The notes below the pieces were generated by a model. That model made no database searches and was not told the origin of the DNA. It saw only the letters and a list, made by a program, of their open reading frames with translations. Shown in pieces: positions 3,497 to 30,878 of a stretch of 32,000 nucleotides of DNA (positions are counted from its first letter, which is position 1; every line of letters begins with the position of its first letter). Source of the stretch: Fibrobacter succinogenes subsp. succinogenes S85 (GTDB lineage: Bacteria > Fibrobacterota > Fibrobacteria > Fibrobacterales > Fibrobacteraceae); assembly GCF_000146505.1 (NCBI RefSeq), contig NC_017448.1, forward strand, positions 1,500,001 to 1,532,000. The letters run 5' to 3'. The position numbers and the translations under genes were made by a program.

Positions 3497-5458
<1,962 letters not shown>

Positions 5459-6463
5459 ATGAGTCCGACGAAAGCCGACTTCAAAGCTGTTCTATCACAG
5501 GCTCGCGATTTGGTAAAAGTCGAGCTTGACAAGACGGAACAAGTCATTATGCAGGTGGCAAAGAACGCCCCCGCAGGGATTAGCGATCGCCTTGTAACGC
5601 TCTTTAGCCGCAAAGGCAAGCGCATCCGTTCAACACTCCTTTGCCTGCTCGCAAATTGCGGTGCTCAGAAACCGGACATTGACCGTGTTGCGCACGCCTG
5701 CGCAGCCGTAGAACTTTTGCATCTTGCAAGCCTCGTCCACGACGACATCATTGATGGTACAGACGTCCGCCGCGGCCAAAAGACGGCCCACCGCGAATGG
5801 GGTACGCAAGTAGCCGTGTTGATCGGTGACTATGTGCTTTCGCAGTCCATGCGCTGCGTCATTGACGAACAAGCTCGCAACATTCCTGTCATCATCTCTG
5901 ATGCCGCTGACAAGCTCATCATTGGTGAAATTATGGAACTAGACCATTGCGGTGACATGAGTCTTTCCCGCAAGTCTTACAACGAAATCATTGACGGAAA
6001 GACCGCCGCGCTCATTGACGCCGCAGCACGCATTGGCGGCATTTTGGCAGGATTCGATCAGCCCATGGTTGATGAATGTGCCAAGATGGGAACGCACTTT
6101 GGCATCGCATTCCAGATTATTGATGACCTGCTGGACTACGGCTATGGCTCCGTGAACATGGACAAGGCTAAGTTCACCGATCTTTCGAACGGACTCATCA
6201 CGTTGCCACTCCTCTATTACTTTGAGGACTGCACGGCTGAAGAACGCCGCGAAATGGAAGGCTTTATCGCAAAGGCTTCAGCAGAAGGTATTCCTGAAAA
6301 GATTCAGGATCGCCTATTTGCAAAGAAAAGCTTTGCGAAGGCAAAGGCCGAAGCCCAGGAACACTTGGAACAAGCGCTCGCCATTGCTGACAAGTTCCCG
6401 AAGAGCAACTTCACCGAAGAAATCACCGCCATGTTTGCAAGCATGAGCGACCGAGGGAACTAA
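5459..6463 (+). CDS. trans-Polyprenyl diphosphate synthase (IspB/HepT-like long-chain type)
   Basis: 334 aa. Two Asp-rich motifs are present (LVHDDIIDGTDVRRG and FQIIDDLLDY). The ATG abuts the gyrB TAA with a 0-nt gap. Confidence 0.85.
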   Translation: MSPTKADFKAVLSQARDLVKVELDKTEQVIMQVAKNAPAGISDRLVTLFSRKGKRIRSTLLCLLANCGAQKPDIDRVAHACAAVELLHLASLVHDDIIDGTDVRRGQKTAHREWGTQVAVLIGDYVLSQSMRCVIDEQARNIPVIISDAADKLIIGEIMELDHCGDMSLSRKSYNEIIDGKTAALIDAAARIGGILAGFDQPMVDECAKMGTHFGIAFQIIDDLLDYGYGSVNMDKAKFTDLSNGLITLPLLYYFEDCTAEERREMEGFIAKASAEGIPEKIQDRLFAKKSFAKAKAEAQEHLEQALAIADKFPKSNFTEEITAMFASMSDRGN

Positions 6464-7357: not shown

Positions 7358-8290
7358 TTATTTCTTGCGCATCCAAACGGCCAAGAAGACAAACACAGAA
7401 AGGAAGCAGATTGCGATAATAATCCAGAACGCCACCGGGGAGCCGACAGTCGCATCGCCGTTCATGCCAAACGGGAGCTTCACGTTCATACCGAACAAGC
7501 TTGCGAAGAACGTCGGGAGCGAAATAGAAATCGTCACGATAGTGAGGTTCTTCATCAACTGGTTCACGTTATTGTTGATTACGCTTGCGCGCGCATCCAT
7601 CATGGATGTCAAAATGTTGGCGTAGATGTTTGCCTGTTGCAGGCTCTGCCCGTTTTCAATCTGGATATCTTCCAGGAGTTCGCGTTCAGCTTCGGTCCAG
7701 TTGAGGCTGCGGCCAAGCTGCAACTTGCGCAACAGCGTATCGTTACTGTTCAAGGCGCTCACGTAGTAAATCAAGCCCTTGTTCAAGCTGAACATCGAGA
7801 GCAAATACTTGTTTTCCATCGACGTATTGAGGCGGAGTTCCAAGTCGTCGTTGATGCGGTTGATAATCTTCAAGTGTTCATTGAAGTGTGCAATCGCAAA
7901 GCTCAGCACGCGGAGCACAAACGTATTCAGGCTATCGATTTTCGAGAACTTGCGTTCATCCATCACCGGGATGTCGCTGTCCGTAAGGAGCAAGACCCAG
8001 TCCTTGAAAATGAAAATGCCAAAAGATTCCACGCGGAACTGGAAATTATCTTCGGCAGAATAATTCTTGGGCTTCTTAAACACGATGGTCGTAAAATCAT
8101 CGTCGTATTCGATACGGGAAAGTTCGTCCGAGTCAAATGCGGAGGCAATCGTATGTTCCGTTATCTCATATTCCTTAACAAGGATGCTGCGCTGTTCCTG
8201 GCTTAAAGAACCCATCATAACGATGTCAGCAGCTTCTTCGTTCGGAGCTACTGAGAGACGACCGGATTCGATTTTGTAATACTTGAGCAT
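7358..8290 (-). CDS. corA: CorA-family magnesium/cobalt transporter
   Basis: The C-terminus has two TM helices and the GMN motif (SLFGMNVKLPFGMNG), and the N-terminal domain is typical. I place the start at ATG 8290 (MLKYYKIE), preceded by AAAGGGGG. The 43-codon extension in the ORF track runs into the upstream terminator. Confidence 0.85.
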   Translation of the reverse strand: MLKYYKIESGRLSVAPNEEAADIVMMGSLSQEQRSILVKEYEITEHTIASAFDSDELSRIEYDDDFTTIVFKKPKNYSAEDNFQFRVESFGIFIFKDWVLLLTDSDIPVMDERKFSKIDSLNTFVLRVLSFAIAHFNEHLKIINRINDDLELRLNTSMENKYLLSMFSLNKGLIYYVSALNSNDTLLRKLQLGRSLNWTEAERELLEDIQIENGQSLQQANIYANILTSMMDARASVINNNVNQLMKNLTIVTISISLPTFFASLFGMNVKLPFGMNGDATVGSPVAFWIIIAICFLSVFVFLAVWMRKK

Positions 8291-14790: not shown

Positions 14791-14821
14791 CAATTCTTAT
14801 TCTTAATCGTTCTTTATAGAA

Positions 14822-14885
14822 TTAGGCACGCTTAGCGTACTTCTTAAAGCTCTTTAATCAAGAGGGCGGCGAGAATGCAGTACAT
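14822..14885 (-). pseudogene. Micro-ORF unit 1: a frameshifted paralogue of the 20-aa peptide gene, reading MYCILAALLIKEL* as sequenced
   Basis: ATG at 14885 with AAGGAG 8 nt upstream. One extra T in the run 14853-14855 relative to unit 2 gives a stop at 14844-14846. Removing it restores ...KSFKKYAKRA* ending at 14822. Confidence 0.45.
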
Positions 14886-14915
14886 TATTTTGACTCCTTG
14901 TTTTTGACGGCGCCA

Positions 14916-14944
14916 ATATTAACAAAGTTTTACTAACACGTCAA
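14916..14944 (-). promoter_or_regulatory. Promoter of micro-gene unit 1
   Basis: The minus strand reads TTGACG, a 17-nt spacer, then TAATAT. The latter can also be read as TAATATTGG, an FCB-type -7 box. Confidence 0.5.
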
Positions 14945-15030
14945 GGTATTTTAGTATATATTTCGGCAACTTTTTTGGACATTTCGTCCATAACAAAATT
15001 CGGCGCCGACCTTGAACGATTTAAGCCCCT

Positions 15031-15061
15031 AAAAAAAGCAAAGCCACGGAAATTCCGTGGC
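15031..15061 (-). terminator. Terminator of micro-gene unit 2
   Basis: The minus strand reads GCCACGGAATTTCCGTGGC followed by TTTGCTTTTTTT. Confidence 0.75.
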
Positions 15062-15100
15062 GTCGCGTTCGTTAGTTGGAGAGAGAAAAATCTTTTTCGA

Positions 15101-15163
15101 TTAAGCACGCTTTGCGTATTTCTTAAAGCTCTTAATCAAGAGGGCGGCGAGAATGCAGTACAT
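15101..15163 (-). CDS. Micro-ORF unit 2: 20-aa hydrophobic-cationic peptide MYCILAALLIKSFKKYAKRA
   Basis: ATG at 15163 with AAGGAG 8 nt upstream. It has its own promoter and terminator. It is paralogous to unit 1, and only synonymous differences occur in the tail codons. It is absent from the ORF track because of its size. Confidence 0.55.
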   Translation of the reverse strand: MYCILAALLIKSFKKYAKRA

Positions 15164-15193
15164 TGTTTAGACTCCTTGTTTTTGACGGCGCCA

Positions 15194-15222
15194 ATGATAA
15201 TAATTTTTTACTAACGTTTCAA
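15194..15222 (-). promoter_or_regulatory. Promoter of micro-gene unit 2
   Basis: The minus strand reads TTGAAA, a 17-nt spacer, then TATCAT. It sits in the same register relative to the conserved leader GGCGCCGTCAAAAAC as in unit 1. Confidence 0.5.
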
Positions 15223-15381
15223 GGGTGAAAAATATAGATTTCGCGAAAATTTTTCGAAACCGTTTTTAGGACTGTTACACCCGCAAAATTGGGCCTCGCC
15301 CTGCACCCAAATAACACAATTCTTGCGATTGTTCTATATATATTGCAATCTCCGGGGTGGAAATTTGGTAAATTATGGGCT

Positions 15382-17205
15382 ATGAAACGATTTTTGCTTT
15401 TATGTCTCGGTTTAACAGCATTTGTAAACGCAAAGCCATCTCTTCAAGTCGATAGCGACCGCATCGAAGCGGGTCAGACATTCAATTTGCAGTTCATCGT
15501 TCCGATTCAGGAACTGCCGCAGAACAGAGGCGCGCTCCGCCTCGAAACACGCAATAACTTTAAGTTCCTCGGGCTCGACAGTGCCGACCAGGTGATGCGC
15601 CCGGACATGGACGATATTTTCAACTCGTTTTTCGGCGGTGGCGGAAGAGCCTACAAAGCCCGCGTCTATTCTTTCAAGATTAAAGCCCCGAAAAAGACCG
15701 GTACACAAGACCTCGGAACGCTTACCTGGATGATTGGCGGCGAAGCCAACACCATCAGTAGCAAAATCCCGGTCAGCGTGCAGCGTTCCTATAACGACGA
15801 CGCACTCGCCGTAAGCCTTACCCCGAGCAAAAAGTCCATTTACGAAGGTGAACAGTTCAGCGTCACCCTCAGCCTCCACACTTTTGAGCATTTCCAGGGC
15901 GGCCTCCAGGCTACCGACATGAGCACCGGCAACGATTTCATCGTCCACCGTAATGACCTCTCAAATCTGGATTTCAAGCCAGTCGAAGGCGCCCGTCGCG
16001 AAATGAAGGCATCCGCCAAATACGCTTGGCTCAGCCCGACCAAGAGCGGAACACTCCAAATTCCGTCTTTCAAGTTCAAGTACACCAAGCTCGGTGAACC
16101 CAAAGTCGTCGAAGAAAAGAAGCAAATGGGCGGCATGTCATTCTCCAGCCGTAGCGTAAAGCAGGAATCCATCGAAACGGAAACCTCCACCGCTCCGCTT
16201 TCCATTACCGTTCTCCCACTCCCGACCGAAGGCAAGCCTGCCGATTTCTCGGGAATGGTCGGTAACTACAGCTTTAGTGCCAACTTTGACCGCACAAATC
16301 TCAAGGTCGGCGAAGCATTGACTCTTGCGATTAGCATCAAGGGCGATGGCACTCCAGGAACCATCACGGACCCGAAACTCCCCGACTTTAGTGAATTCCG
16401 CTCCGTCCCGCCCGAAAACAGCATCAACAAGAAGGTCAAGGGCAACAAGGTCATTACCTCAAAGGATATCAAGGTTTTCCTCTACCCGAAGAAAAAGGGA
16501 ACTTTCGAAATCCCGGCCATTACCTATTCCTGGTTCAACCCGGCTAAAAAGAAGTACGAAACCGCTTCGGCAGGCCCGTGGACTATTGAAGTTGAAAAGA
16601 GCGATGCCCCCGCAGAACCCGTTTACCAAGCTCCGGTTTCCGCAGGCACTGGCACCTCGGCTCCTGTCGTTCAAAAGCAAGAAATTGAATTCCTAGGCAG
16701 CGACATCCGCTTTATCCACCCGATTACAGACAAGTCCGAAACGGCAGCCCCGCACAGGAGCGTATTGTTCTGGATTCTCTTTGCTGCGGCAATTCCGTTC
16801 TACCTGATTGTGAACTTCGCCATCACACGCAAGCGTAAGCGCAACAGCAACACAGCTCTCGTCCGCAAGGGCAAGGCAAACAAGCTCCTCAAGGAAAAAT
16901 TCGCAAACGCCCGCACAGCCCTCAAGAACGGTGACGGCAAGGCTTTCTTTGCAGCACTAGAAAATGGACTTATCGATTACCTCAGCAATTTGACGAACGT
17001 CGAATTCAAGGGCATGACCCGCCCGCAAATGAAGCAGGAACTTTCAAAGCGCGGCGTCAAGGAAGAAACGATTGAAGCCATCAACAGTTGGCTTGAAAAA
17101 TGCTCGTTTGTGCGTTTTGCTCCGGTCACTGCATCGACCGAAGAACAGTCCCAAATGCTCGCAGATGTCGAAAAGCTCTGCGAAAGCCTCGAAAAACTCA
17201 AGTAG
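15382..17205 (+). CDS. batD: BatD-family (oxygen-tolerance) protein
   Basis: 607 aa from ATG 15382 (MKRFLLLCLGLTAFVNA, a signal peptide). It has repeated Ig-like modules, the hallmark LPLPTEGKPADFSGMVGNYSF...GEALTLAISIKGDGTPG, and a C-terminal TM helix plus cytoplasmic tail. Confidence 0.75.
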   Translation: MKRFLLLCLGLTAFVNAKPSLQVDSDRIEAGQTFNLQFIVPIQELPQNRGALRLETRNNFKFLGLDSADQVMRPDMDDIFNSFFGGGGRAYKARVYSFKIKAPKKTGTQDLGTLTWMIGGEANTISSKIPVSVQRSYNDDALAVSLTPSKKSIYEGEQFSVTLSLHTFEHFQGGLQATDMSTGNDFIVHRNDLSNLDFKPVEGARREMKASAKYAWLSPTKSGTLQIPSFKFKYTKLGEPKVVEEKKQMGGMSFSSRSVKQESIETETSTAPLSITVLPLPTEGKPADFSGMVGNYSFSANFDRTNLKVGEALTLAISIKGDGTPGTITDPKLPDFSEFRSVPPENSINKKVKGNKVITSKDIKVFLYPKKKGTFEIPAITYSWFNPAKKKYETASAGPWTIEVEKSDAPAEPVYQAPVSAGTGTSAPVVQKQEIEFLGSDIRFIHPITDKSETAAPHRSVLFWILFAAAIPFYLIVNFAITRKRKRNSNTALVRKGKANKLLKEKFANARTALKNGDGKAFFAALENGLIDYLSNLTNVEFKGMTRPQMKQELSKRGVKEETIEAINSWLEKCSFVRFAPVTASTEEQSQMLADVEKLCESLEKLK

Positions 17206-17218
17206 CGTCGGTAAAAAC

Positions 17219-17989
17219 ATGAAGAACTTTAAGCAGATTATTTTGACAATCGCCGCAGCGCTCATCCTCACCTCCGCAGCAAGCGCTGCCGACAAATGCA
17301 ACGGTCTCGATGCCGGCACAAAGGCATATAACGAAAACGATTTTGAACGTGCCATTGACGAATGGCGCACATGCGTTGACGAAGGCATCGTCAATGCGGA
17401 CCTCTATTACAACCTGGGTAACGCCTATTACCGCAGCGGGAAACTCGGCTTTGCTATTTTCTACTACAAGTCAGCACTCCGTTTGCACCCAAGCGATGAC
17501 GACATCCAGCACAACCTGAATTTCGCGCAGACTAAGACCCGCGACAAGGAAGGCGACGAAGAAGAGAACCCGATTCTCGAAGGTTTGATGGACTTGCACC
17601 ACGCGCTTTCGCTCAAGAGCCAGATGAACATTTCGCTCGTACTCTTCTGGGCAATTGCACTCGTGATTCTCGCCCGCCGTTTCGTGAACGGCAGCCGAGG
17701 CAAGAACGTCTGCACAGGAGTCGTATTCGGCATGAGCGTTATCCTCTGCACAATTGGCGCAAGCGCTCTCTACAAGATGTACACGCTCGAAACGGACATC
17801 ACGGGCGTCGTGACAGCCTCAAGCGCCGACGTGACAAGCGCCCCGAGCGACAAATCTCAAACGCTCAACACGCTCTCCGAAGGCACAAGCTTTGAAGTCA
17901 TCGGTGAACAAGGCAACTTTGCAGAAATCCGCCTCGGCGAAAAAATCCGCGGATTCGTCAAACTCAGCGAAGTCGGGATTGTGAAGTAA
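17219..17989 (+). CDS. BatE-like TPR plus SH3b-domain membrane protein
   Basis: 256 aa from ATG 17219 (MKNFKQIILTIAAALILTSAASA), 13 nt after batD. It has TPR repeats (YYNLGNAYYRSGKLGFAIFYYKSALRL), a TM segment and a C-terminal SH3b-like segment (FEVIGEQGNFAEIRLGEKIRGFVKLSEV). Confidence 0.7.
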   Translation: MKNFKQIILTIAAALILTSAASAADKCNGLDAGTKAYNENDFERAIDEWRTCVDEGIVNADLYYNLGNAYYRSGKLGFAIFYYKSALRLHPSDDDIQHNLNFAQTKTRDKEGDEEENPILEGLMDLHHALSLKSQMNISLVLFWAIALVILARRFVNGSRGKNVCTGVVFGMSVILCTIGASALYKMYTLETDITGVVTASSADVTSAPSDKSQTLNTLSEGTSFEVIGEQGNFAEIRLGEKIRGFVKLSEVGIVK

Positions 17990-17990
17990 T
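17885..17990 (+). repeat. Direct repeat A (the last 34 codons plus stop of the batE-like gene)
   Basis: 97/106 nt are identical, without gaps, to 18875-18980. The offset is exactly 990 bp. Confidence 0.9.
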
Positions 17991-18020
17991 GCGGCTCAGC
18001 CGCAGTAGGCAGAACTTAGA

Positions 18021-18821
18021 TTACAGCAAAGAATCGCTATACCATTCTCCAAAGTTTTTTACGGAAGGAATGCGACGTCCTTCATCTTCACATTTCCATA
18101 TTTCACTTCGGAAAAGCTTGCCTGTATAAGGAGGCATTTTTCCATCTTTTATAATTCCATCCGAATCTGCAATCAAAAAAATCGTTTCTATCACCCATGT
18201 GGACAAAATGCAGCCATTGCCACCTGGGTGTACTTCAACAAAGCTCATTTCATCATTTGTTAATTTATTCAGTATAACAAACAAAGGATCAGCCCCAACC
18301 TCAACAAGAACGGCATAGAATTTCACATTAGACGAAAACTTATTTTTTAAAAGTGGCGCAGTCTTGGGAAAACATTCTGCAATGCTCTCTTCAGAAATAG
18401 AGTTCAAAAAAATCATATCATCTTCTTCATCTAACCGAACCATAACATCGGCACATTTACTAGAAATACTATATGCATTTACCGCCAACACATGACTATC
18501 AAAACTTACGGAACTTTCGCCAGGCGCGGCAAACTGAGATATGTATTTTGAAAATGTTGGTTGATCAGTTCCCGCAGATGAAGAAATTGCACTTTCTGAT
18601 GATGACGAAGCCGTTTCAACAGACGATGAGGAAACATCATTTGTTGACGAACTAACAGGATTATCGGTTTCAGAATACGCAACATCCGAGGACGAACTTA
18701 TCAGCGAACTGGACGAAGTGCTCGTGAGAGTCGGAGCAAAATTTACGCTAGAATCTCCGTCATCGGAGCATGCGCAAAACATCAATGAAGTAATCAAAGA
18801 GACTATAGATAATCTTTTCAT
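18021..18821 (-). CDS. Hypothetical lipoprotein with a long Ser-rich linker (the cargo of the 990-bp insertion)
   Basis: 266 aa from ATG 18821. It has the lipobox LMFCAC and about 70 residues of Ser/Thr-rich low complexity, followed by a globular C-terminal domain of unknown family. It is AT-richer than its surroundings. Confidence 0.65.
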   Translation of the reverse strand: MKRLSIVSLITSLMFCACSDDGDSSVNFAPTLTSTSSSSLISSSSDVAYSETDNPVSSSTNDVSSSSVETASSSSESAISSSAGTDQPTFSKYISQFAAPGESSVSFDSHVLAVNAYSISSKCADVMVRLDEEDDMIFLNSISEESIAECFPKTAPLLKNKFSSNVKFYAVLVEVGADPLFVILNKLTNDEMSFVEVHPGGNGCILSTWVIETIFLIADSDGIIKDGKMPPYTGKLFRSEIWKCEDEGRRIPSVKNFGEWYSDSLL

Positions 18822-18874
18822 AAACACACTTCTCTCTCAAAAAAATGTTTATAACCTTTTATAAATATAAATAA

Positions 18875-18979
18875 ACAAGCTTCGAAGTCATCGGTGAACA
18901 AGGCAACTTTGCAGAAATCCGCCTCAGCGAAAAAAAACGCGGTTTTGTAAAGCTCAGCGAAGTCGGGATTGTAAAGTAA
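18875..18979 (+). pseudogene. Orphan 3' fragment of a batE-like gene (direct repeat B)
   Basis: It translates in frame to TSFEVIGEQGNFAEIRLSEKKRGFVKLSEVGIVK*, with a TAA stop immediately upstream and no start codon. It has 9 nt differences from copy A: 6 synonymous, and 3 that cause the 2 replacements. Confidence 0.8.
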
Positions 18980-19468
18980 TTACTTGAAGGGTTTGTCCCA
19001 GGGACTAACCCATGTAGAATCATTTCGCGTTATAGGAATGGTTACTTCCGTAGGGAATTTTCCATATTCTTTTGTGGGGACGACAGCTGTAACGACAGCT
19101 ACGGGAAGCATAATCATGTCGAAAAAGAACAACGTCGTTACAACACCACCGCTCCCCCTACCATCCGAAAAGAACGGCCAATAGCGCAACAAGCCGGCAT
19201 TAAAATGATATGAGGACTCGCCGCGACTTACCCACAAATTGCCGTAAACTATTTCATTTTTTCGTGCTTCCAGATAAATCGCATCTTCACTTGTTGAAGA
19301 TTTAAATCGGCAATAATCGCTTGTCGGACAAACCTGTTTTCCATCGCAATAAATGGAATAGTCCCCTTTGCCATCGGATACGGAAACCCACATCTCGTAA
19401 CTAGAAGCACATCCGACAAAAAGTAGAGATATTGCAAATATTAAAGCAATAACAACATATCGGTTCAT
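18980..19468 (-). CDS. Hypothetical lipoprotein
   Basis: 162 aa from ATG 19468 (MNRYVVIALIFAISLLFVGC, a lipobox). It has a hydrophobic segment near the C-terminus. It is AT-rich, and its stop abuts repeat B. Confidence 0.6.
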   Translation of the reverse strand: MNRYVVIALIFAISLLFVGCASSYEMWVSVSDGKGDYSIYCDGKQVCPTSDYCRFKSSTSEDAIYLEARKNEIVYGNLWVSRGESSYHFNAGLLRYWPFFSDGRGSGGVVTTLFFFDMIMLPVAVVTAVVPTKEYGKFPTEVTIPITRNDSTWVSPWDKPFK

Positions 19469-19488
19469 ATTGCATCTAAAAACAAAGA

Positions 19489-20556
19489 TTACACAATCTG
19501 GCCGCCGCCGAGCACCATATCGCCATCGTAAAAGACGGCACATTGGCCAGGAGTCACGGCAAAGAGTGGTTCGTCAAAGACGGCGACCGCCTTATTCGTA
19601 TCAACAATGGTAACTTCGCAGCCGACCGCCCGCTGGCGGTAACGCACCATGCCTTCGGCGCGGAACGTCGTCCCGACCTCCCGCACACCGCCGTGCCATT
19701 CGCAGTTCACCATTTCCACGCGGTCAAAGCAAACCGACGACTTGTCGCCTGTCACCAGAATGTCGCCCGTTTCCGGGTCTACATGCTTCACAAACGCAGG
19801 CACACCAATGGCCACGCCCAGACCTTTGCGCTGACCGACCGTGTACTTATGGAACCCATCGTGCGTATTCCACACCTTGCCCTTTTCATCCACGAAGCGG
19901 CCCGGCCGCGTCATCTCGCCAAAGCGATCCTTCAAAAATTCAGTGTACTGCGAACCGTAAATGTCAAAGCAAATGTCCTGGCTGTCGCCCGTCTTGGCAT
20001 TCACAAAACCGTTCTGCGCGGCGATTTCGCGCACTTCGCTTTTCACGTACGTTCCAAGCGGCGTGAGCACATGATTGCGGCGTTCATCGGGAACCCAGAA
20101 CAAAAAGTAACTCTGGTCCTTGCCCGGATCGCGACCGCGCAAAAGCCTGCGCACACCATTCACTTCTTCGATGCGCACGTAATGCCCTGTCGCCAAGAAT
20201 TCGGCGCCGAGCGATTTGGCATAATCCATCATCCAGCCGAACTTGATAAAGCGATTGCAATAGCAGCAAGGGTTCGGCGTACGTGCATGCGAAAAGTCCG
20301 CATGGCAGCGCTTTAGGACTTCACCCGTAAAAGCGTCGGAGCAATTCGCCACGTGATGCTCTATGCCAAGCTTTTCGGCAATCATCTTCGCACGGACCAC
20401 ACTAGGGTCGTTTTCAACATCAAAGGCGCTATCGACATCAGGCAAAACGCGGAGCGTCACGCCCACAACTTCATAACCCTGCTGTTGCAAAAGAAGAGCG
20501 GCAACGGACGAATCCACGCCACCGCTCATGCCGACTGCGACTCTCGTTTTAGACAT
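19489..20556 (-). CDS. mnmA: tRNA 2-thiouridine(34) synthase MnmA
   Basis: It has the PP-loop VAVGMSGGVDSSVAALLL, the conserved Cys residues (NPCCYCN) and the usual C-terminal barrel. I place the start at ATG 20556, with AGGAG 10 nt upstream. The TTG at 20577 would overlap sprA. Confidence 0.93.
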   Translation of the reverse strand: MSKTRVAVGMSGGVDSSVAALLLQQQGYEVVGVTLRVLPDVDSAFDVENDPSVVRAKMIAEKLGIEHHVANCSDAFTGEVLKRCHADFSHARTPNPCCYCNRFIKFGWMMDYAKSLGAEFLATGHYVRIEEVNGVRRLLRGRDPGKDQSYFLFWVPDERRNHVLTPLGTYVKSEVREIAAQNGFVNAKTGDSQDICFDIYGSQYTEFLKDRFGEMTRPGRFVDEKGKVWNTHDGFHKYTVGQRKGLGVAIGVPAFVKHVDPETGDILVTGDKSSVCFDRVEMVNCEWHGGVREVGTTFRAEGMVRYRQRAVGCEVTIVDTNKAVAVFDEPLFAVTPGQCAVFYDGDMVLGGGQIV

Positions 20557-20569
20557 GTCGCGATCGCTC

Positions 20570-23500
20570 CTAATCAAATCTCAGCATCAGAGCAAGTTCA
20601 AACTGGAGAATCTGGCGGATATGAGCCGTTTCGTCGTCCAGCTTTTCATGAATCTGCCTGTACTCGATGTACGAACTGAGCGAAGCCATCTTGTTGAACG
20701 TGTAAGAAGCACTCGGGCGGATGAACCATTCGTGCGTTCTTGACGGAACCGTGCGGTAGTTCAATTCGAGCTTCGGCTTGTAAGCTACAAAAGGCTTCAC
20801 GCCGGAATCATACTGATAACGCACAAATACGCCATCCGTACCCGATTCCTCGTTCATCATGTCATAACCTTCCACCGGTTTGTATTCCTTACGGATAGTC
20901 TTCCTGTAATCGTAACCGGCAGTAAGCTTCAAGTCAATATCGTTCTTGAGCTTAAAGAACCACTTCCAAATCTGGAAGCCCTTGTCAAGCTTGAGCGGGT
21001 ACGAAATTGAGAAGTCATCACCGACATTAATGGCAAAGTCATTATAAAGCCAAGTCGGGATCCACGGCGTTTCAAGGAAGTACTTTGTGGTATCCGTGCA
21101 GATTTCCTCGGACTCATCCGGCCAGCAAGGATTCGAAATCACTTCTTCCTTCGGGCGGCGGTCGGTAGATTCAATCTTCATACGCACGCTGTTTTCAATG
21201 CGCAAGTTGTTCTGCGTAAGGACAGAAACGCGGATAAGCGGGTTAAAGTTCCAGACTCTAGCCCAGGAATCTTCGGCGCTCTGGAACGGACGGCTTGTCA
21301 CCGTACGGGAATAGTCAAAGCGGCTATTCAGGCTTACGCTACGGAAACGATTCAAGAACGAAACCTTCTGGGAAATGTTCGGAATCGATATCCCGATGCC
21401 AAACTTCGGGAAGGTGGTTGTCGTATCGATGTACAGCGGATATTCACGAGACTGCGAGAAGTCTTCTTTCCACTGGAAGTCTGTCGACAAAGAAATATCC
21501 CAGAACGGCAAAGTGAGGCCTGTAGAAATCTGCAAAGAACGAGACACAGAATTGCGGAAGCTACCCTGATAGACAAGCGTATCCACATTTTTGTTCCTGT
21601 ACTGGGCAAAACCGGTAAAGTCATCGCGGCTAGTCATGCCCATATTACCCGTCATGATATTCCAGAGACCACGACCACCGTGACCATCGCCAAGACCAAG
21701 ACCATAGAGGTAATACTGGAACGGAGTCACGCCCTGTTCTTCGTACAGCTGAGAAAGAGTAAAGTTTTCACCGACCGTATTCGTACTTGCATTCCAGTTG
21801 AACTTGACTTCACGCCACTTGAGCTTGTTGAAGAATCCGGCAACAGCGTTATCCTTGCCGAACAAATTGGCAAGATCAATGATTCTGAGAGCCGGAGTAA
21901 ATTCAAAGCGGTTCGTCTGCGAAATCGTCCAGTAATTCTTTTCGACGTTAGACGGATCTTCAAAATTGAAATCGTCCGGAATACTCTTCTGCTGGTTAAA
22001 GTCCGAAGAGAACTGCATATTGAACGGCAAGAACGGAATCAGCTTGGGATTGAAGTTAATCCTGAACTGCTGATTTCTGGAACGTTCGTTACGGAGAATG
22101 CCGTAAGCACGTCCATATTCGCGATGTCCAACGCTATCGACCTTGTAGAACGAAGTCGTATCATAGCGGATTTCGTACGAATCCGGATTTTGCAAGTCAA
22201 TCGGGAGCTGCTTGCCGTTGGCATCCGTCTTTGCAATCGTATCCAGCGGGATAACTACGAGACTGTCGCGAGAGACGTAGACCTTTCTGTCAGAATGATC
22301 GTGGTCAAAGATGTAACCGCTCGCAAAAAGACCGCCCTTGTCAAACGTAAAGAAGTTTTCCTTCACGAAAGCTTCACGGTCTCCACCGCCAAACATGTCA
22401 CGCTTGATATTGACAGAATAGCTCGTCGAGAGGAACGAAAGGATGTTCCAGCGCATGTTCAACTTGTGGTTGAGCTCGGCAGTATAAGTCACGACCTTAT
22501 CGACCTGCGGTTCCACAAAGTCCGGATCGCGAGTCTGGTTCACATAGCGCACGTAGTTGAAATCGAACAATGTCAAATCGAAAGTCTGCGGCCACGGTTC
22601 AAATTCCGTCTTCGAGAAGTCCTTGAGCCAGGAATACTTTGAAAGGCTTTCGAACGGCTTGAACTTGAACATGCTAAACGTACCCAGCTTATACTCGAAC
22701 ATCGCATGGTACGAATACGTGGAGTCCGCCGATGTCGTAGAACGGCCTTCGGACTGGTGGTAAGAATAGCTTAACGCCGGACGTTCCAAGAAAGCCTGCG
22801 AGAAGAATTCACCTAGCTTGGTTTCGCTAGCCTTGTAATCCTTATGGTAGCTGATGCTAAAGCCCAAATCCTGTTCATAGGATTCATAGCCCTTGGATTC
22901 AGCGTTATCCCTCAACCTGTTTTCTTCTTCTTCGGATTCTACGGCAAGGTCGCCCTGGAACATATCACCCGTCAAATCGACAAAGCTGCTCTTGTTGAGG
23001 ATCATGTCGTCTGTGGGCTTCATGTAGGGGCGTTTCGTAGAGCTGTGGTAGCTAAACGACATCGGGATGTGGAATCCAAGAGAATCGTTCAAGAACTTGT
23101 TGAGCGCAATGGAAATGTCGGCAGAAATATCAAGCTGAGATGCAGCGGAAGCAAGGTCCGGCTTCGGAGAGCGTCCCGAATTGGAGAGCGTTGCAAAGTC
23201 GCCGTCCTGATAACGCACAGCACCCGAAAGCGAGATAAAGTCTGCAAAATTCACCTGACCGTTCACGCGGGCGGCATAACCCCATTCCGTATCCATGTCA
23301 GAAAGGCGGAGGTCATTAATCCAGAATGTACCCTTGAGGTCATTGCGAGAAGCCGAAGAATCCGCGATAATCACAAAACGAATCCAGTCCACCTTCGTAA
23401 TGGAGGGGTTACCGACCAAGCGAAGCACTTCTTCCCTATCACCGTCAAGTTTCTTGACAACCGGGTCCAAATAAGGCGGATGGCGGCCACGCTTGAGGTC

Positions 23501-26500
23501 CGAGAAGTCGGACAAGTTCATAGCAAAGGCGTTATCAATCCAGTTCTGCTCATGGCAATCCTGCACGCGGTCCGGAGTGCAACCCGACATGTCCAAATCC
23601 TTCGGGCGGAAACTCCATTCATAATAGTCCTTGGAGCCTTCAATAGAGCCTTCGCCAAACTGCAATGCAAATCGCACAGGAACAGAGGACTTCGTTTCGG
23701 CACCGTTTTCGTAATGGATTTCCATCTTCAGGGACTTATACGCCGAGAAGTTCTTCGTATCGACATCAAACACGCGCGTCACACCGACTTCCTGGCCAGG
23801 ACTCATGTTGTGGTAATCCAAGACAAGAGCCGTTTCCTTGAGCGGGGCATTCGAATCCGCATCGCGTTCCGTCACCGTATTCGGGGACTTGAAATACGTC
23901 TTCGCATTTTCGCGGTTGTTGATGGTTGAAACATTGATGTAGGTCGTATCAGAAGAGACCGTTTCCGTGACCGTGTTTTCAACGCCGTTCACTTCGACAA
24001 TCTGCGAATTTTCGTTCGTAGAAGTGCGATACAAGCTTGCAACAGTCGTTTCTTCCCAGGCATTGCCCAAAACGCCGAGGCTTACCACCTGCACCTTCGC
24101 TTCGGAAACACCAGGACCAAGACGGCCCAGCCACATACGGGTGAAATGGGATTCCGCAAGGATTTCGCGATAGCCGCTACCCGTCGAAGAAACAATCGTA
24201 TCGTACTGGCTCAGCGGAATACGCCATCTGCGCCAGCCGTTTTTCAGTTCTTCAAATTCAAGCTTATCCGTGCTAGAAAGGTCGATGCGGTAACGGACAA
24301 AGCTGATATCCGTATCAAAGGAACCGTTCCTATTGATATCTTCGGTATCATAAGCACGTTCGCCCAAGTTACCTTCAGTACCGTTAATGCTCTTCGGCGG
24401 ATCGCTTTCTTCATCCAGGTCCTTGAAGTCATCACCGGCAATATCTCTCGTCGATAGATCAATATTACCCCTAGAGGCACTCAAGGTATCCGAACGACAG
24501 ACGGAATAGCGGCAATCCCAAGCGACCCTGCTTTCATCTTGACCAGTAAGCTCGTCAAGACCTCTATCGTGCCTTGCGGTCGTCATGCCGAGCTGGTTTT
24601 CACCGTTGTAAATACCGTTAGGTGCATAACCATTAATCGAGATGTCTTCGCTGACAAGACCCAAGTCAATAAAGATAGAACCGGAATTACCACGAGCAAC
24701 CACTTCAAGGTACTTCATCTCGCTCAAGTCCTGGTAATACGAGCTGTTTGCGCGCATGATACCGCCCCAAGAATTACCCATGAGGTTATCATTCGGGCGC
24801 AACGTCATCTTGAGCACCGTCAAGTGCTGGTTATCGACATCAGAGTTGCCAACGTTATCGTAAATGTACTTGTAGAGTTCCGTATTGTTGCTATGCCAGA
24901 TAAACTCACCCTGATGACGATAGTCCAAGTCCTCGATGTAAGTTGATCTGAACGGAAGAGAGTCAATACCGCCCGGAGGAGATGCCGGATACCAGGATTG
25001 CCTAGAAAGCGGATACACAAGGCCAGTCGAGGTTGATTCAAAGTCTTCGACAAGAGCGGTCTGCGTGCTGCTCGTGTTCGCATTATGCCTACTACCGGCA
25101 AATTCAGCTTCAACGCGCCAGTTAGAAGATGCGGTTGTCTGGATACCCGGAATGGCATTGACCAAGTCCGTGAGAGCCTGCACAGAATCCTGCAAGCGGA
25201 GGTTGAAGCCCCAAAGGAAGCTGGAGTACGGTTCGTTACCAAGAGTCGGAACTTCGGCGGTTGTGCTCTGGCTCTTGTAAAGGGCGGTAATGCCAAAGAC
25301 AGAACCAGCACCAAAGCCATAGAGGTCAAGAGGCAATTCTGCACGAGCACCCAAAAGCAACTTGTTGTCCACTTCAAACATGGGCTCGCATTCAAACTTG
25401 ACCTTGATTTCCTTGTTCGGGTCAAGAGCGCGTTCACTCAAAAGTTCAATCTGGCCAAGTTCATAATTGACTTCGTAGTCAGTCCCACGGATAAGCGTTG
25501 TCGAACCGGCAGTCACCTTTTCAGAACCCGGAGAAATATCCATGCAGCTACCGCTATTCACAGAATAGCTCGAATTCGGATCACGCACGCTAAGCGTAGA
25601 GTTACGGCGCTTGCCCACAGATTCAAAGTAGAACAGGCTCGTGTAACGGTTCAGGTTGTAAACCGGGAGCGTGTAAAGCTGTTCCATCGCCGAGGTAGTA
25701 TCCAGGTTACGCAAAGGTTCCAAGCAGTTCTGCTTAGCCAGTTCCAGAGCGTTAGAACGTCCTGAATAAATTGTATCGGTAAACGGCTTACAGGGCAACC
25801 ACATTTCACCGGTATAGCTACCTAGGGAATCCTTCTTGAATATGGTAGCGTCGTTCACCAGCGGAGTTCCGTTTGACTCATCCGCAAGTCCGAGCTGTTT
25901 CAAGTAATTTCCGGAAACGCCCGACTTGTTTTTCATGCGGAGCACAAAGTTGTTTGCACTCGCATCAGAAATGCCGATGGAATACACATTGCGCAACATC
26001 AACTTGTCAATGTCCTTGAGTTCGCTCAGCGTTGCATCCCACTGGATAAGGACCGCTTCGCCACCATTGCGCAAATCCTTGCCCTTGCGTTGTTCGTTCT
26101 CGCTACTGTAGTTCGCCGCAATGAGTGTGTTTCGGTTGACACCGTTAATCTTCAAGATACCCGTCTTAGGATCGTACTTGTAATCCGATCGCGGAATTTC
26201 TTCCATGCGGTTTACAACCTTTCTAATTTCCTTTCCTTGCTGGGTCGTATAAACAACGGTGACATCCTTGATGACATTGTCCGTTTCATTCAGCGAGCTT
26301 CTCTTGTACAGCTTCAGGTCAGACAACGGATAGTTGATGTTGCCTTTCTTGATGGCTGCATTGACGTAGTCAGTCCTCACCTTGTGGTTCAAGAAGTAAT
26401 AGCGGTACGCAAGGAACTGCTTATCGGTAATCTGGAACTCGGTCGTTGATTCACTCGCCTTGATGGAATACTCTTCCTGCTGACCGCCATCCTGAGAGGC

Positions 26501-27980: not shown

Positions 27981-29873
27981 CTAGAGGAACATTTCAATGC
28001 CGCCACGACACTTTTCCCAAGCCGGGTTCTTTTTGCACAAGAGGTCGATCATCTTGTCGTAAGTAGCCGTATTGGAGAAGCCCTTCCACAAGCGACGTTC
28101 CACGGATTCACCGGAATCCTTGTCAATCGTCGTGATGGTGTCGTAGTAGGCCGTGTTGTCCTTGAATTCAGAAATCAAGATGTTCTTCAAGTCATCCGTG
28201 TAAATGCGGGAGGCGTACTTGAGGATGGAATCGTTGAAGTTGAGTTCGTTTTCGACGAGCCATTCGAAGTCCTGGATCGGGTTACCATAAACAAGCCAGT
28301 GCTTAAGGGCGAGAGCGACCACGAGATCCCTAACGGCGCTGCGGAAGATGAACTTGTCTTCGAGACGGCCATTCCACGTGATGCGGGTCAGCGGGTTATC
28401 ATCGTTAGCTTCAATAGACACACCCTTACCCGGAGTGACCTTGCGGATCTTAATCGGGAGACGGCTAAGGAGCTGCCATGCCTTCGTGAAGGCGATAGTC
28501 TTACGGACGAAGTCCTTTTCCTTTTCGGGGGCAACGCGCACAAAAGCACCGAAGCAGCGCTGGTAGAGAGTTTCCTTGTCGAAGATGCAGTCGCTGGAAC
28601 GGCATTCGCTGAGCTTTCCGTCCATGAGGAACAAGGTCTTTGCAAGTTCCGGACGCATACGGACTTCGAGCTTACGGGTACGGGCCTTGAGGCGGACACC
28701 GTCCTTGTAAACGTAGGTAAAGCCTTCTTCCTGGTAACGCTGCCAAATGAAGAACTGCAGGTCGTCAGCGGCACGCAGATGGTAGCTGAACACCGGGTTC
28801 TGGCGGTTGTTAGCCATAGTCACCTGATTCAGGAAGTTGTCGGCACCCTGGTACGGCACAACGACCTTCACGAGCACCTGCGGGTTCACCGGATGCTTGC
28901 TTTTCTTGGCATACTGTTCGTACGTGAAGAGGGACTGAGCACCGTTGATGATCTTCGGGCGTTCAATGAAGAGGACCTTCTTGCCGTCACGTTCCTTGAG
29001 ACGCAGGTCATCGCCCGTAAGGGTCATACCGTTGTGGAGGAACGGGAAGTCGTCGACATTCACATTCTGGTCATCGTTACGTTCCATCGTCTGGAAAGCA
29101 TCGATGAGGGCTGCGTTCGTGTGAGTGAGGTTACCGAGGTAAGTACGGATGTTGGAACTGACGATAGCCATGTTGTGCTTGGTCTTGAGGCGCTTACCAA
29201 GGGCAACGTGGTAGTCAAAAATCGTGCGGATCGGGCAGAAGCCGAGGAAAAGCTCGCCGTGATCAGAAGTGAGGTGGAGCGGTTCAGAGTCCATCTCGAT
29301 TTCAAGCTTGTCGTCTGCGCTGCGGAAGTCGCGGGTAAGGTCGTCATGTTCGGCAATGATTTCAAGCTTTGCCTTGACGTCAGCCTTCCAGAGCATGAGC
29401 TTTCTGCGCATGTCCTTGAGAGTACGTTCAAGTTCGGAGTCCGTGATGTCGCGGCTTGCGCGAGTGCGGAGCACCGTGATTTCGAGCGTTTCCATGTACG
29501 GACGGCTTGCAGGCGTGTCGGAATCTTCTTCGGATTCGTCGTCAGAAATCTTGTTGACTGCCCACGGGTCGGCTTCTTCGCGAAGTGAGAGGAAGAACGG
29601 ATTGGTCGGGTCGCTAGTACGGAACACCGCAATCTGGAGCTGCTTCAAGTCAGCGTTCAGGTGTGCGACAACCTTTTCAAGCGGAGTATCTTCGTCCAAG
29701 AAGATGAAGAATTCCATAAAGCCCTGTGAATACTGGAAGCCGTGGAAGCATCCATTTTCATCTAGGTTCAGATGCCGGAGTGCCTTGATTCTATCGTTCG
29801 GGTCGTTAGGGTTCAAGCTCAAGAGGCTAGCGACAAATGCTAAGCGGCGTTCCTGCGATTTTGTTAGTTCCAT
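27981..29873 (-). CDS. AIPR-like (abortive infection phage resistance family) protein with an unassigned N-terminal region
   Basis: 630 aa from ATG 29873 (GAGG SD 5 nt upstream). The central block NIRTYLGNLTHTNAALIDAF...FPFLHNGMTLTGDD...IINGAQSLFT matches my recollection of the AIPR core (NvR.fLG...N..I..T...NNGITI...IVNG.QT). I recognise nothing in the N-terminal roughly 230 aa or in the acidic linker DDESEEDSD. Confidence 0.45.
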   Translation of the reverse strand: MELTKSQERRLAFVASLLSLNPNDPNDRIKALRHLNLDENGCFHGFQYSQGFMEFFIFLDEDTPLEKVVAHLNADLKQLQIAVFRTSDPTNPFFLSLREEADPWAVNKISDDESEEDSDTPASRPYMETLEITVLRTRASRDITDSELERTLKDMRRKLMLWKADVKAKLEIIAEHDDLTRDFRSADDKLEIEMDSEPLHLTSDHGELFLGFCPIRTIFDYHVALGKRLKTKHNMAIVSSNIRTYLGNLTHTNAALIDAFQTMERNDDQNVNVDDFPFLHNGMTLTGDDLRLKERDGKKVLFIERPKIINGAQSLFTYEQYAKKSKHPVNPQVLVKVVVPYQGADNFLNQVTMANNRQNPVFSYHLRAADDLQFFIWQRYQEEGFTYVYKDGVRLKARTRKLEVRMRPELAKTLFLMDGKLSECRSSDCIFDKETLYQRCFGAFVRVAPEKEKDFVRKTIAFTKAWQLLSRLPIKIRKVTPGKGVSIEANDDNPLTRITWNGRLEDKFIFRSAVRDLVVALALKHWLVYGNPIQDFEWLVENELNFNDSILKYASRIYTDDLKNILISEFKDNTAYYDTITTIDKDSGESVERRLWKGFSNTATYDKMIDLLCKKNPAWEKCRGGIEMFL

Positions 29874-29899
29874 TTTTTCCTCAATAATTACACTGAAAA

Positions 29900-29926
29900 C
29901 CAATATACAATATTATTATATATTGG
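29900..29926. promoter_or_regulatory. 27-bp near-perfect palindrome in the AIPR/LRR divergent region (candidate operator)
   Basis: CCAATATACAATATTATTATATATTGG. 12 of 13 arm positions pair. It lies 27-53 nt upstream of the AIPR-like ATG. Confidence 0.5.
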
Positions 29927-30125
29927 AATATTCGTAATTTGCACCTTAAAAATAGTTTCAAATCATAATATTTGCGTGCAAAAAAGATAAAACATTCAAT
30001 TTTTTTTAGAAAAATACAAAATTTCAGTGCTCAAATGTGTAAAAATCTCATTTTTTACATTTTTTTTGTGGACTTTACGTTTTTTTGAACAAAAAAGCTA
30101 TGATTTAAATATTAGGAGTTTTTTT

Positions 30126-30878
30126 ATGAATTTACTAGACGTTATTGCCAAAGCAAAAAAAGAAAAAGCAAAGACGCTCGACCTTTCCCAGAAAGGCCTG
30201 CGCCTCCTCCCCCCGGAACTTTTTGAAATTGAGTCCCTTGAGGAACTGAACCTCGACCGGAACATGCTTGTCGAAATTCCCGACGACATCGGCCTCCTCA
30301 AGAACCTGAAGAGCCTCTCCGTGAGCGAAAACGACCTCATGGAACTGCCGGAATCCATCGGTGAGCTCACCAAGCTTGAAAACCTCTATCTCGGCTACAA
30401 CAGCCTTTCGGACCTTCCGGAATCTGTCGGCAAGCTCGTGAACCTCCAGACGGTGAACATTGCCAAAAACCAGCTTCTGGACCTGCCGCTCGAAATCGGC
30501 AACTGGCAGAAGGTCGTGAAGCTCTCGCTCCACGACAACATGCTCTCCGAAATTCCGCCGACCATCGGCAAGATGAAGAGCCTCGTGAAGCTCTACCTCG
30601 ACAACAATGAACTTTCAACCATCCCGGCAACGCTCTCGCACCTCGAGAACCTCGAAATCCTCATGATTTCCGGAAACCGCCTGGGAGCCATTCCGTCTGA
30701 ATTCGGCAACCTGAAGAACCTCCGTGAACAGGTACTCGACGCAAACCAGCTCGCCACGCTCCCGGAAAGCCTCGCCGAATGCGAAAACCTCAAGACCATC
30801 TCCATCATCGAAAACCCGATGGAAGAAGGAGTTCCTCGCGTGCTCCTCGACAAGAAGGGCCTGAGCATCGACCAGTAG
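30126..30878 (+). CDS. Leucine-rich repeat (LRR) protein with no other domain
   Basis: 250 aa from ATG 30126 (AGGAG 7 nt upstream). It has nine to ten 23-residue repeats of the form LxxLxLxxNxLxxLPxxIGxLxx. No signal peptide. The GTG extension to 30027 lies in an AT-rich promoter-like sequence. Confidence 0.85.
   Translation: MNLLDVIAKAKKEKAKTLDLSQKGLRLLPPELFEIESLEELNLDRNMLVEIPDDIGLLKNLKSLSVSENDLMELPESIGELTKLENLYLGYNSLSDLPESVGKLVNLQTVNIAKNQLLDLPLEIGNWQKVVKLSLHDNMLSEIPPTIGKMKSLVKLYLDNNELSTIPATLSHLENLEILMISGNRLGAIPSEFGNLKNLREQVLDANQLATLPESLAECENLKTISIIENPMEEGVPRVLLDKKGLSIDQ

Follow-up and report, generated by a model that had tools for sequence, protein, structure and literature searches.

How does a bacterial chromosome come to carry the last 106 nucleotides (nt) of a gene twice, on the two sides of a single lipoprotein gene, with no mobile-element genes nearby? 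The question is raised by a locus of Fibrobacter succinogenes subsp. succinogenes S85, which lies in a stretch of 32,000 nt (contig NC_017448.1, positions 1,500,001 to 1,532,000 of the forward strand) that was analysed as a whole and is referred to here as the window; coordinates are those of the window unless a relative is named. At this locus, an intact batE-like gene is followed by a gene for a Ser-rich lipoprotein (lipo1), by an orphan copy of the batE 3' end, and by a second lipoprotein gene (lipo2), before mnmA is reached. An initial annotation, made from the letters alone, had interpreted the arrangement as a homology-facilitated capture of foreign cargo at the end of a gene. Having compared the locus with its counterparts in relatives, we consider it probable that the S85 arrangement arose through one recombination between a lipo1-type and a lipo2-type chromosome, at a hotspot, and was then inherited or spread.

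Results

Anatomy of the duplicated gene end

The repeat search returned a single 106-nt family with two members, 17885-17990 (copy A) and 18875-18980 (copy B), 990 nt apart, which align at 97 of 106 positions (91.5%) with zero gaps and whose similarity ends abruptly on both sides, just as the initial annotation had it. The runner-up direct repeats in the surrounding 7 kb measure merely 20-34 nt at 66-91% identity, so that the 106-nt pair is far beyond chance. The parts of the locus that matter for the argument are the following:

17219-17989, plus strand: batE-like gene, intact, 256 amino acids (Pfam TPR_1/TPR_2, SH3_3)
17885-17990, plus strand: copy A, the functional batE 3' end, codons 223-256 with the stop codon and 1 nt (repeat search, alignment, codon comparison)
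18021-18821, minus strand: lipo1, Ser-rich lipoprotein, 266 amino acids (lipobox FCAC/S)
18822-18874, minus strand: lipo1 upstream (promoter) region, cut off at the junction (comparison with relatives)
18872-18877: non-homologous junction 18874/18875, ..AAATAAAC/AAGCTT.., with a TAA in the copy B frame directly upstream
18875-18980, plus strand: copy B, orphan batE 3' end, 34 codons and stop, untranslatable (repeat search, alignment, relatives)
18980-19468, minus strand: lipo2, 162-amino-acid lipoprotein, the second hotspot cargo gene (lipobox FVGC/A)

Copy A had been taken for the genuine end of the batE-like gene, and indeed it is joined seamlessly to the upstream part of batE, with no junction on its left. 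Copy B, in turn, had been described as an orphan with a stop codon directly upstream that abuts the stop of a convergent lipoprotein gene, and this description also holds: its first base falls on a codon boundary, an in-frame TAA (18872-18874) stands immediately 5' of it, it is without a start codon, and its last base (18980) doubles as the first base of the minus-strand lipo2 stop codon. It sits between the two minus-strand genes, lipo1 and lipo2. The insert between the repeats is 884 nt long and contains lipo1 as its sole gene, which is oppositely oriented and AT-richer, as had been claimed (GC content 0.39; GC content at third codon positions, GC3, of 0.31, against 0.39 for lipo2 and 0.62-0.67 for the flanking core genes). 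The claimed absence of an integrase or transposase likewise stands, as Pfam found no such domain in the large open reading frames of the 32-kb window; neither inverted repeats at the insert boundaries nor a tRNA target were found.

As counted before, six of the nine differences between the copies are synonymous, while the remaining three nucleotides fall in two altered codons (G240S and I243K). The copies share a perfect run of 42 nt. Eight of the nine differences are located in the final 55 nt, and the first 51 nt contain one (Fisher P = 0.03), a clustering that is compatible with partial homogenisation of the 5' half. Copy A also carries a perfect 12-nt palindrome, AATCCGCGGATT, at 17944-17955, with a run of A just before it; four of the nine differences lie in or beside this palindrome, and the orphan version (18934-18945) reads AAAACGCGGTTT. 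Neither a terminator-like site nor a significant fold was detected in the palindrome region.

An assembly artefact, which the initial annotation had named as something to check, is excluded, since both junctions are reproduced by independent short-read assemblies. Namely, Logan contigs from many independent runs match 17906-18925 exactly (copy A, lipo1 and copy B), others match 18896-25468 exactly (the copy-B-specific bases, lipo2, mnmA and sprA), and one more spans 15205-18145. These contigs end within the 42-nt run shared by the two copies, as expected for a true repeat. All Logan contigs with exact S85 proteins are S85-like and break inside the repeat, so that they yield no alternative arrangement. 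Moreover, CP001792.1 (Fibrobacter succinogenes S85) contains a gene for the exact BatE protein at approximately 1.07 Mb.

The batE-mnmA interval in relatives

We compared the locus with 37 Fibrobacter loci from species-representative genomes, 64 from metagenomes and 11 from look-ups of lipo1 homologues (numbered with the prefix L), and took as the close clade those with a BatE at least 85% identical. The interval in which both lipoprotein genes reside is bounded by two conserved genes:

15289-17205, plus strand: batD-like gene (Pfam BatD, E = 5.5e-24), left conserved flank and possible homology anchor
19489-20577, minus strand: mnmA, tRNA 2-thiouridylase (Pfam tRNA_Me_trans with M and C domains), right conserved flank and possible homology anchor

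In close relatives the batD-like protein is 82-98% and MnmA 91-99% identical at the amino acid level. Between batE and mnmA, by contrast with these conserved flanks, the close clade has anything from 13 to 1617 nt, with at least five cargo families:

Empty, batE to mnmA 13-50 nt: nine loci (L003, L005, L033, L063, L070, L071, L075-77)
A lipo1-family gene alone: L001, L061, L067, L072, L079, L122, L125, L126-132 and others
A lipo2-family gene alone: L002, L004, L006, L011, L062, L066, L073
Lipo2-like genes with a 115-amino-acid secreted protein: L007, L008, L012, L078, L085, L113
A DUF285/BspA-like repeat protein: L058, L060 and L074, in the last together with lipo2
Another lipoprotein: L065

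To judge from these arrangements, the batE-mnmA gap is evidently a gene-turnover hotspot in the F. succinogenes clade. In 16 other loci, this site is taken by lipo2 homologues (35-99% amino acid identity). The lipo1 homologues whose contexts were looked up (78-91% amino acid identity) are all in lipo1-only loci, and no lipo1-only locus has a duplicated batE end. Most cargo swaps at the site are scar-free, and the S85 type alone shows a visible duplicated gene end.

Segment-wise identities to relatives, of which 24 were compared, range from 80 to 99%, and the closest partner changes from gene to gene. For instance, L074 is 99% identical to S85 in lipo2 and sprA and 93-95% in batD and batE, while L059 and L122 are 95-96% identical to it in lipo1 and 87-88% in sprA. 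Such mosaic identities indicate that homologous recombination is frequent in the clade.

Several side observations concern the same site. The DUF285/BspA-like proteins (L058 5783-6607, L060, and L074 2537-3217) are encoded on the plus strand, have 226-274 amino acids and a varying number of repeats, and carry NWDVSNVTDM..MF..FNGD repeats. In L074, the stop codons of the DUF285-like gene and of lipo2 are 5 nt apart, with no batE remnant between them, and lipo2 is 99% identical to that of S85.

Parental arrangements and the junction

Are there chromosomes that carry the two halves of the S85 arrangement separately? The lipo1-type and lipo2-type arrangements do occur as separate haplotypes in relatives. 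In particular, L001 forms one alignment block with window positions 15032-18566 (batD, batE and lipo1), and L002 and L007 each form one with 18875-19486 (the batE 3' end and lipo2), so that S85 corresponds to a lipo1-type left half fused to a lipo2-type right half. The empty site predicted by the initial annotation, with batE running directly into convergent lipo2, was found in L002, L007 and L062.

The S85 lipo1 upstream region is homologous to that of the lipo1-only loci L072, L120 and L001 until approximately 18874 (..AATATAAAT(A)AAA..). Beyond this point, another 90-160 nt lead up to the mnmA stop in the lipo1-only loci; S85, by contrast, changes over to batE at 18875. At the join, the parental types, as represented by diverged proxies, share just ACA/CACA (2-4 nt), the lipo1-only sequence reading ..AAAACACAGCC.. 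and the batE sequence ..GGCACAAGCTT... The other side is seamless, in that the sequence shows no break left of copy A or right of lipo2.

A second batE end is also present in two metagenome contigs. L059 has a BatE 98% and a lipo1 94% identical to those of S85, an orphan at 6321-6426 and then a lipo2 at 83% identity, while L068 has a lipo1 at 77% and an orphan at 5184-5282. The start base of the orphan and the junction sequence are identical in S85, L059 and L068, and the lipo1 upstream region (18822-18874) is 96% identical in L059 and L068. An identical junction in three lineages is most economically read as a single origin. A blastn search with word size 7 over approximately 60 other related loci found no further orphan batE end. 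By this comparison, the two-copy event is evidently old and shared, and the reading as a recent insertion private to S85 has to be given up.

Evolution of the orphan

The differences between copies and between lineages bear on what became of the orphan afterwards. In L059, copy A and the orphan differ at eight positions, all eight synonymous; in L068 they differ at three, again all synonymous, and have five lineage-specific variants in common. Between the L059 and L068 orphans, six of six differences are synonymous, for which P is approximately 1e-4 under neutral decay (22% synonymous sites). As an untranslatable fragment escapes selection at the protein level, this variation must stem from functional batE ends and have entered the orphans through gene conversion, with copy A as the donor, or through allelic recombination involving other strains. 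At the same time, codons 247-248 read GTA-AAG in all three orphans and codon 248 reads AAA in all three A copies, a signature that fits common descent of the orphan.

Among the three orphans, decay is limited to that of S85. Five of its nine differences from copy A, including all the non-synonymous ones, are unique among approximately 40 close-clade batE ends and look like pseudogene decay; two of the five (TTT246 and GTA255) are also seen in a small number of other sequences, most of them distant. The remaining four are synonymous differences of the allele type. The initial annotation had argued that the two copies diverged as functional alleles, and this is upheld in general and for four of the nine S85 differences, but not for the other five. 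A phylogeny of the 106 nt has few sites to work with and much recombination in them: the S85 orphan is 9-10 differences from each near sequence and equidistant from S85 copy A, L074, the L059 orphan, L065, L079 and L120. That an orphan should still exchange sequence with functional alleles is the mildly unusual feature of the locus.

Other features of the locus

In the BatE-like protein, a TPR region and a membrane segment are accompanied by a C-terminal SH3_3 domain. Downstream of its gene lies one further small feature:

17990-18020: 31-nt spacer from the batE stop to the lipo1 stop, with a small hairpin GCGGC-tca-GCCGC

The hairpin is seen in folds of both strands. The spacer is an indel polymorphism, present in S85, L068, L072, L120 and L067 and missing in L059, L001 and L081, three loci in which nothing separates the stop codons of batE and lipo1; its presence is independent of the two-copy arrangement.

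The lipo1 product consists of a signal peptide, the lipobox, a disordered Ser-rich linker of approximately 70 amino acids and an alpha/beta domain of approximately 175 amino acids, and its C-terminal domain has four conserved Cys. Neither lipo1 nor lipo2 has a Pfam or NCBIfam match. Among 50 lipo1 homologues, those with a named source are exclusively Fibrobacter proteins from metagenome-assembled genomes, and every context examined is Fibrobacter. An AlphaFold2 model of lipo1 built with 29 homologues has a mean pLDDT (predicted local distance difference test score) of 61, with 70-86 in the C-terminal domain, and a Foldseek comparison with the PDB gave no match with E below 0.6. An exact-protein look-up of a 268-amino-acid, GTG-start version of the lipo1 reading frame came back empty, and the annotated 266-amino-acid form was found. 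In the family alignment, lipo1 alleles are mosaic, with the blocks CEESMFSYVGEYELLVP versus CADVMVRLDEEDDMIF and residues around 180-235 shuffled among alleles, which indicates probable recombination inside the gene.

Beyond mnmA, the gene map shows a SprA-like gene of 2429 amino acids and, just past it, a protein with an AIPR (abortive infection phage resistance) domain (27981-29903, minus strand) and a leucine-rich-repeat protein (30027-30878, plus strand), a pair that may be another accessory patch. The other genes of the window are of the housekeeping kind (S41 peptidase, MlaE, GyrB, polyprenyl synthase, CorA, SecDF, alpha-amylase, GH77). The AT-rich intergenic region between the GH77 gene and batD contains a direct repeat of approximately 160 nt (14821-14979 and 15100-15257; 82-91% identical, 278-279 nt apart), with no Rfam family and no tRNA in it; each of its copies cross-matches the corresponding region in relatives, which makes the pair a conserved feature of the clade. 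In the lipo1-only loci L126-L128 the same intergenic region, at approximately 7585-8150, holds a BrnA-antitoxin-like gene with a small partner, which suggests a second variable site across batD-batE from the hotspot. One or two extra, diverged batD paralogues (46-54% amino acid identity) stand in tandem upstream of batD in L007 (1655-4116) and L011 (231-1394).

Discussion

The founding event, as we picture it, would have happened once, in an ancestor or a donor lineage, between a batE-lipo1-mnmA chromosome and a batE-lipo2-mnmA chromosome. On one side, ordinary homologous recombination in a conserved flank would have left no scar; on the other, an illegitimate join with 2-4 nt of microhomology would have connected the lipo1 upstream region to batE at 106 nt from its end. 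The resulting chromosome would have retained an intact batE and both lipoprotein genes, lipo2 with a dead 106-nt batE end still linked to it. Three versions of such an event can be imagined. In version (a), incoming batE-lipo1 DNA, anchored on the left, would have pushed the resident batE end and lipo2 downstream, a displacement of the 3' end. In version (b), incoming DNA starting 106 nt inside the batE end and including lipo2, anchored in mnmA, would have replaced approximately 100-150 nt of resident spacer. In version (c), a circularised 990-bp fragment comprising the batE end and lipo1 would have entered by a single crossover of the Campbell type. All three would yield the same sequence. 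Afterwards, the two-copy structure would have been inherited, or spread by homologous recombination, into several lineages, and gene conversion or allelic recombination would have gone on passing sequence between the orphan and functional batE ends, with the exception of the decaying orphan of S85.

What does this leave of the claim of a capture at a gene end? Its recombinational nature, the separate parental arrangements and the one non-homologous junction stand, but not its recency or its direction. Namely, the incoming DNA could equally have been copy B with lipo2, anchored in mnmA, with lipo1 the resident gene, and both lipoprotein genes are atypical in composition (GC3 of 0.31 and 0.39). 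The cargo can be called foreign only inasmuch as it comes from other lineages, and these belong to the same Fibrobacter clade.

A number of points weigh against this reconstruction or soften it. The direction cannot be read from the segment identities to the 24 relatives, which are too mosaic for it, and the three versions of the pathway lead to one and the same sequence. A literature search on recombination and competence in Fibrobacter gave nothing useful, and no experimental data on natural transformation or an equivalent route of DNA uptake were found. The microhomology is a weak indication, as it is suggested by the diverged proxies L072, L120 and L001 and not by the true parents, and 2-4 nt of shared sequence can arise by chance. 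The L068 contig ends inside the orphan, so that the gene downstream is not visible. Both L059 and L068 are metagenome contigs, which could in principle be strain chimeras, but the junction that they have in common with the finished S85 genome argues against this. Finally, the likeness of copies within a genome (three differences in L068; one in the first 51 nt of S85) has multiple explanations.

The alternative that survives best, although we find it unlikely, is that the locus is a self-propagating cassette. Here, a unit made of the batE end, lipo1 and the 106-nt stub would spread by double homologous recombination, with batE on the left and the stub on the right as its arms; it could land behind any batE, and the recipient's own batE end would each time become the new orphan. 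Such a cassette would account for an identical junction in S85 and L059 where the lipo2 alleles differ by 13-17% and lipo1 with its promoter is 94-96% identical, for orphans with only synonymous-type variation, and for the five lineage-specific variants common to the L068 orphan and its own copy A. However, only three two-copy loci were found, the resolved ones all have lipo2 downstream with no landing elsewhere, and 106 nt at 90-95% identity make a poor recombination arm. What is more, the same patterns are accounted for by gene conversion with copy A as the donor, or by a swap of lipo2 alleles in the stretch from the stub to mnmA, and the GTA-AAG of codons 247-248 in all three orphans fits common descent better than repeated re-creation. 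A related idea, to which we give somewhat less credence still, is that the stub serves as a portable homology arm, which together with batE would bracket lipo1 and through which host homologous recombination would exchange the lipo1 module, by copying it behind the batE of other strains or by excision, with no recombinase of its own. If true, it would explain in one stroke a single shared junction and variation among orphans that is synonymous only.

Could the second copy simply have been made in place? On this account, which the initial annotation had already set aside and which we regard as very improbable, the last 106 nt of batE were duplicated on the spot, for instance as a long target-site-like duplication upon insertion of lipo1 by some element, and copy B then decayed. 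It is true that copy B is nearest, in a tie with L074, to the copy A of its own genome (nine differences), that both S85 copies have the rare combination GGT229/GGC232, and that copy B has five changes unique in the close clade, both amino acid changes included. Nevertheless, copy B and lipo2 are collinear with the intact batE-lipo2 of L002, L007 and L062, the L059 and L068 orphans are free of amino acid changes (that of L059 being eight synonymous differences from its own copy A), lipo1-only loci exist without the duplication, and there are neither transposase genes nor inverted repeats. To our knowledge, 106 nt is well above the length of any known target-site duplication, and this too counts against an origin in place.

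Equally hard to credit is that the orphan has been retained for a function of its own, whether as a 3' untranslated region or terminator for lipo2, as a piece of the lipo1 promoter, or as RNA antisense to the batE mRNA end: although a minus-strand sigma-70-like match has its -35 element within copy B and a -10 element in the region upstream of lipo1, although read-through from lipo2 across copy B would yield an RNA antisense to batE that matches it perfectly over 42 nt, and although four of the nine differences cluster at the palindrome, promoter-like sites number two against 3.7 in shuffled sequences and are thus below expectation, the orphan has no terminator-like site, folding z-scores range from -0.6 to +0.2 over both strands, no Rfam match was obtained, and selection on an RNA or a promoter would not give variation that is purely synonymous in the batE frame.

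Further candidates were rejected. A transposon or integrase island lacks the corresponding genes, inverted repeats and a tRNA target. A transposon target-site duplication should be short and exact, and the repeat is 106 nt long and 91.5% identical, with differences of the allele type. A local tandem duplication is at odds with the repetition of only 106 nt, with the lack of a second copy in most relatives, and with the eight synonymous sites at which the L059 copies differ. As for a polymorphic toxin array, the orphan encodes the same 34-residue SH3_3 peptide as the functional end (0-2 changes), convergent lipoprotein genes lie downstream in place of co-oriented immunity genes, and nine relatives have nothing at the site.

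How does the proposed recombination between a lipo1-type and a lipo2-type chromosome compare with known systems? Homology-facilitated illegitimate recombination (HFIR), in which a one-sided homology anchor is combined with an illegitimate join, has been described in the naturally transformable Acinetobacter, Pseudomonas stutzeri and Streptococcus pneumoniae. The S85 locus resembles it in its seamless homologous side, its non-homologous junction with a possible microhomology of a few nucleotides, the gain of DNA without a homologue in the recipient, and the lack of a recombinase gene; it differs in that the S85 case is read from natural sequence only. It also differs in that version (a) would join inside the region homologous to the anchor and so lead to a duplication, whereas classical HFIR, to which version (b) would correspond, deletes recipient DNA (PMC3240628). 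One-sided-homology events in E. coli were mostly single crossovers of circles, duplicating 109-950 bp of the homologous segment (PMC3240628). The S85 locus, where direct repeats of the homologous segment flank the whole 884-nt insert and measure 106 bp, fits this Campbell-type picture of 109-950 bp (PMC3240628), but between its repeats there is just lipo1 with its promoter and no replicon or plasmid backbone, and a 990-bp circle would need end-joining to form.

HFIR has also been proposed for orphan 3' ends and displaced downstream genes at T6SS (type VI secretion system) and Rhs loci of V. cholerae (PMC5361080). The likeness to 3'-end displacement in Rhs, contact-dependent inhibition (CDI) and T6SS loci is that an orphan 3' end keeps its former downstream small gene and is displaced distally by a new end with its partner gene, and the same mechanism has been proposed there (PMC5361080). 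In contrast to those systems, the batE end is no variable toxin domain, orphan and functional end encode the same peptide, and the small genes of S85 are convergent lipoprotein genes, not co-oriented immunity genes, at a site that can be empty. Finally, with recombination hotspots at core genes the locus has in common two conserved flanks, many small cargos or none, a low GC content of the cargo and mosaic flanks, except that the S85 type leaves a duplicated gene end while most swaps, such as that in L074, are scarless. Overall, the locus is a clear instance, found in nature, of a recombination scar of a known kind; it is neither a new kind of element nor a new mechanism.

S85 serves as the reference strain for F. 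succinogenes, a major cellulose degrader of the rumen, and is hard to manipulate genetically. The locus indicates that there is a defined site, between batE and mnmA, at which the S85 lineage swaps genes for small surface lipoproteins by means of host recombination and with no mobile-element genes nearby, and it preserves a natural, datable scar of an event that combined a homologous and an illegitimate step; beyond that, it illustrates known processes. In practical terms, the batE-mnmA site tolerates insertions of 0-1.6 kb, and repeats of 106 nt at approximately 90-97% identity persist in an S85-type genome while still exchanging sequence.

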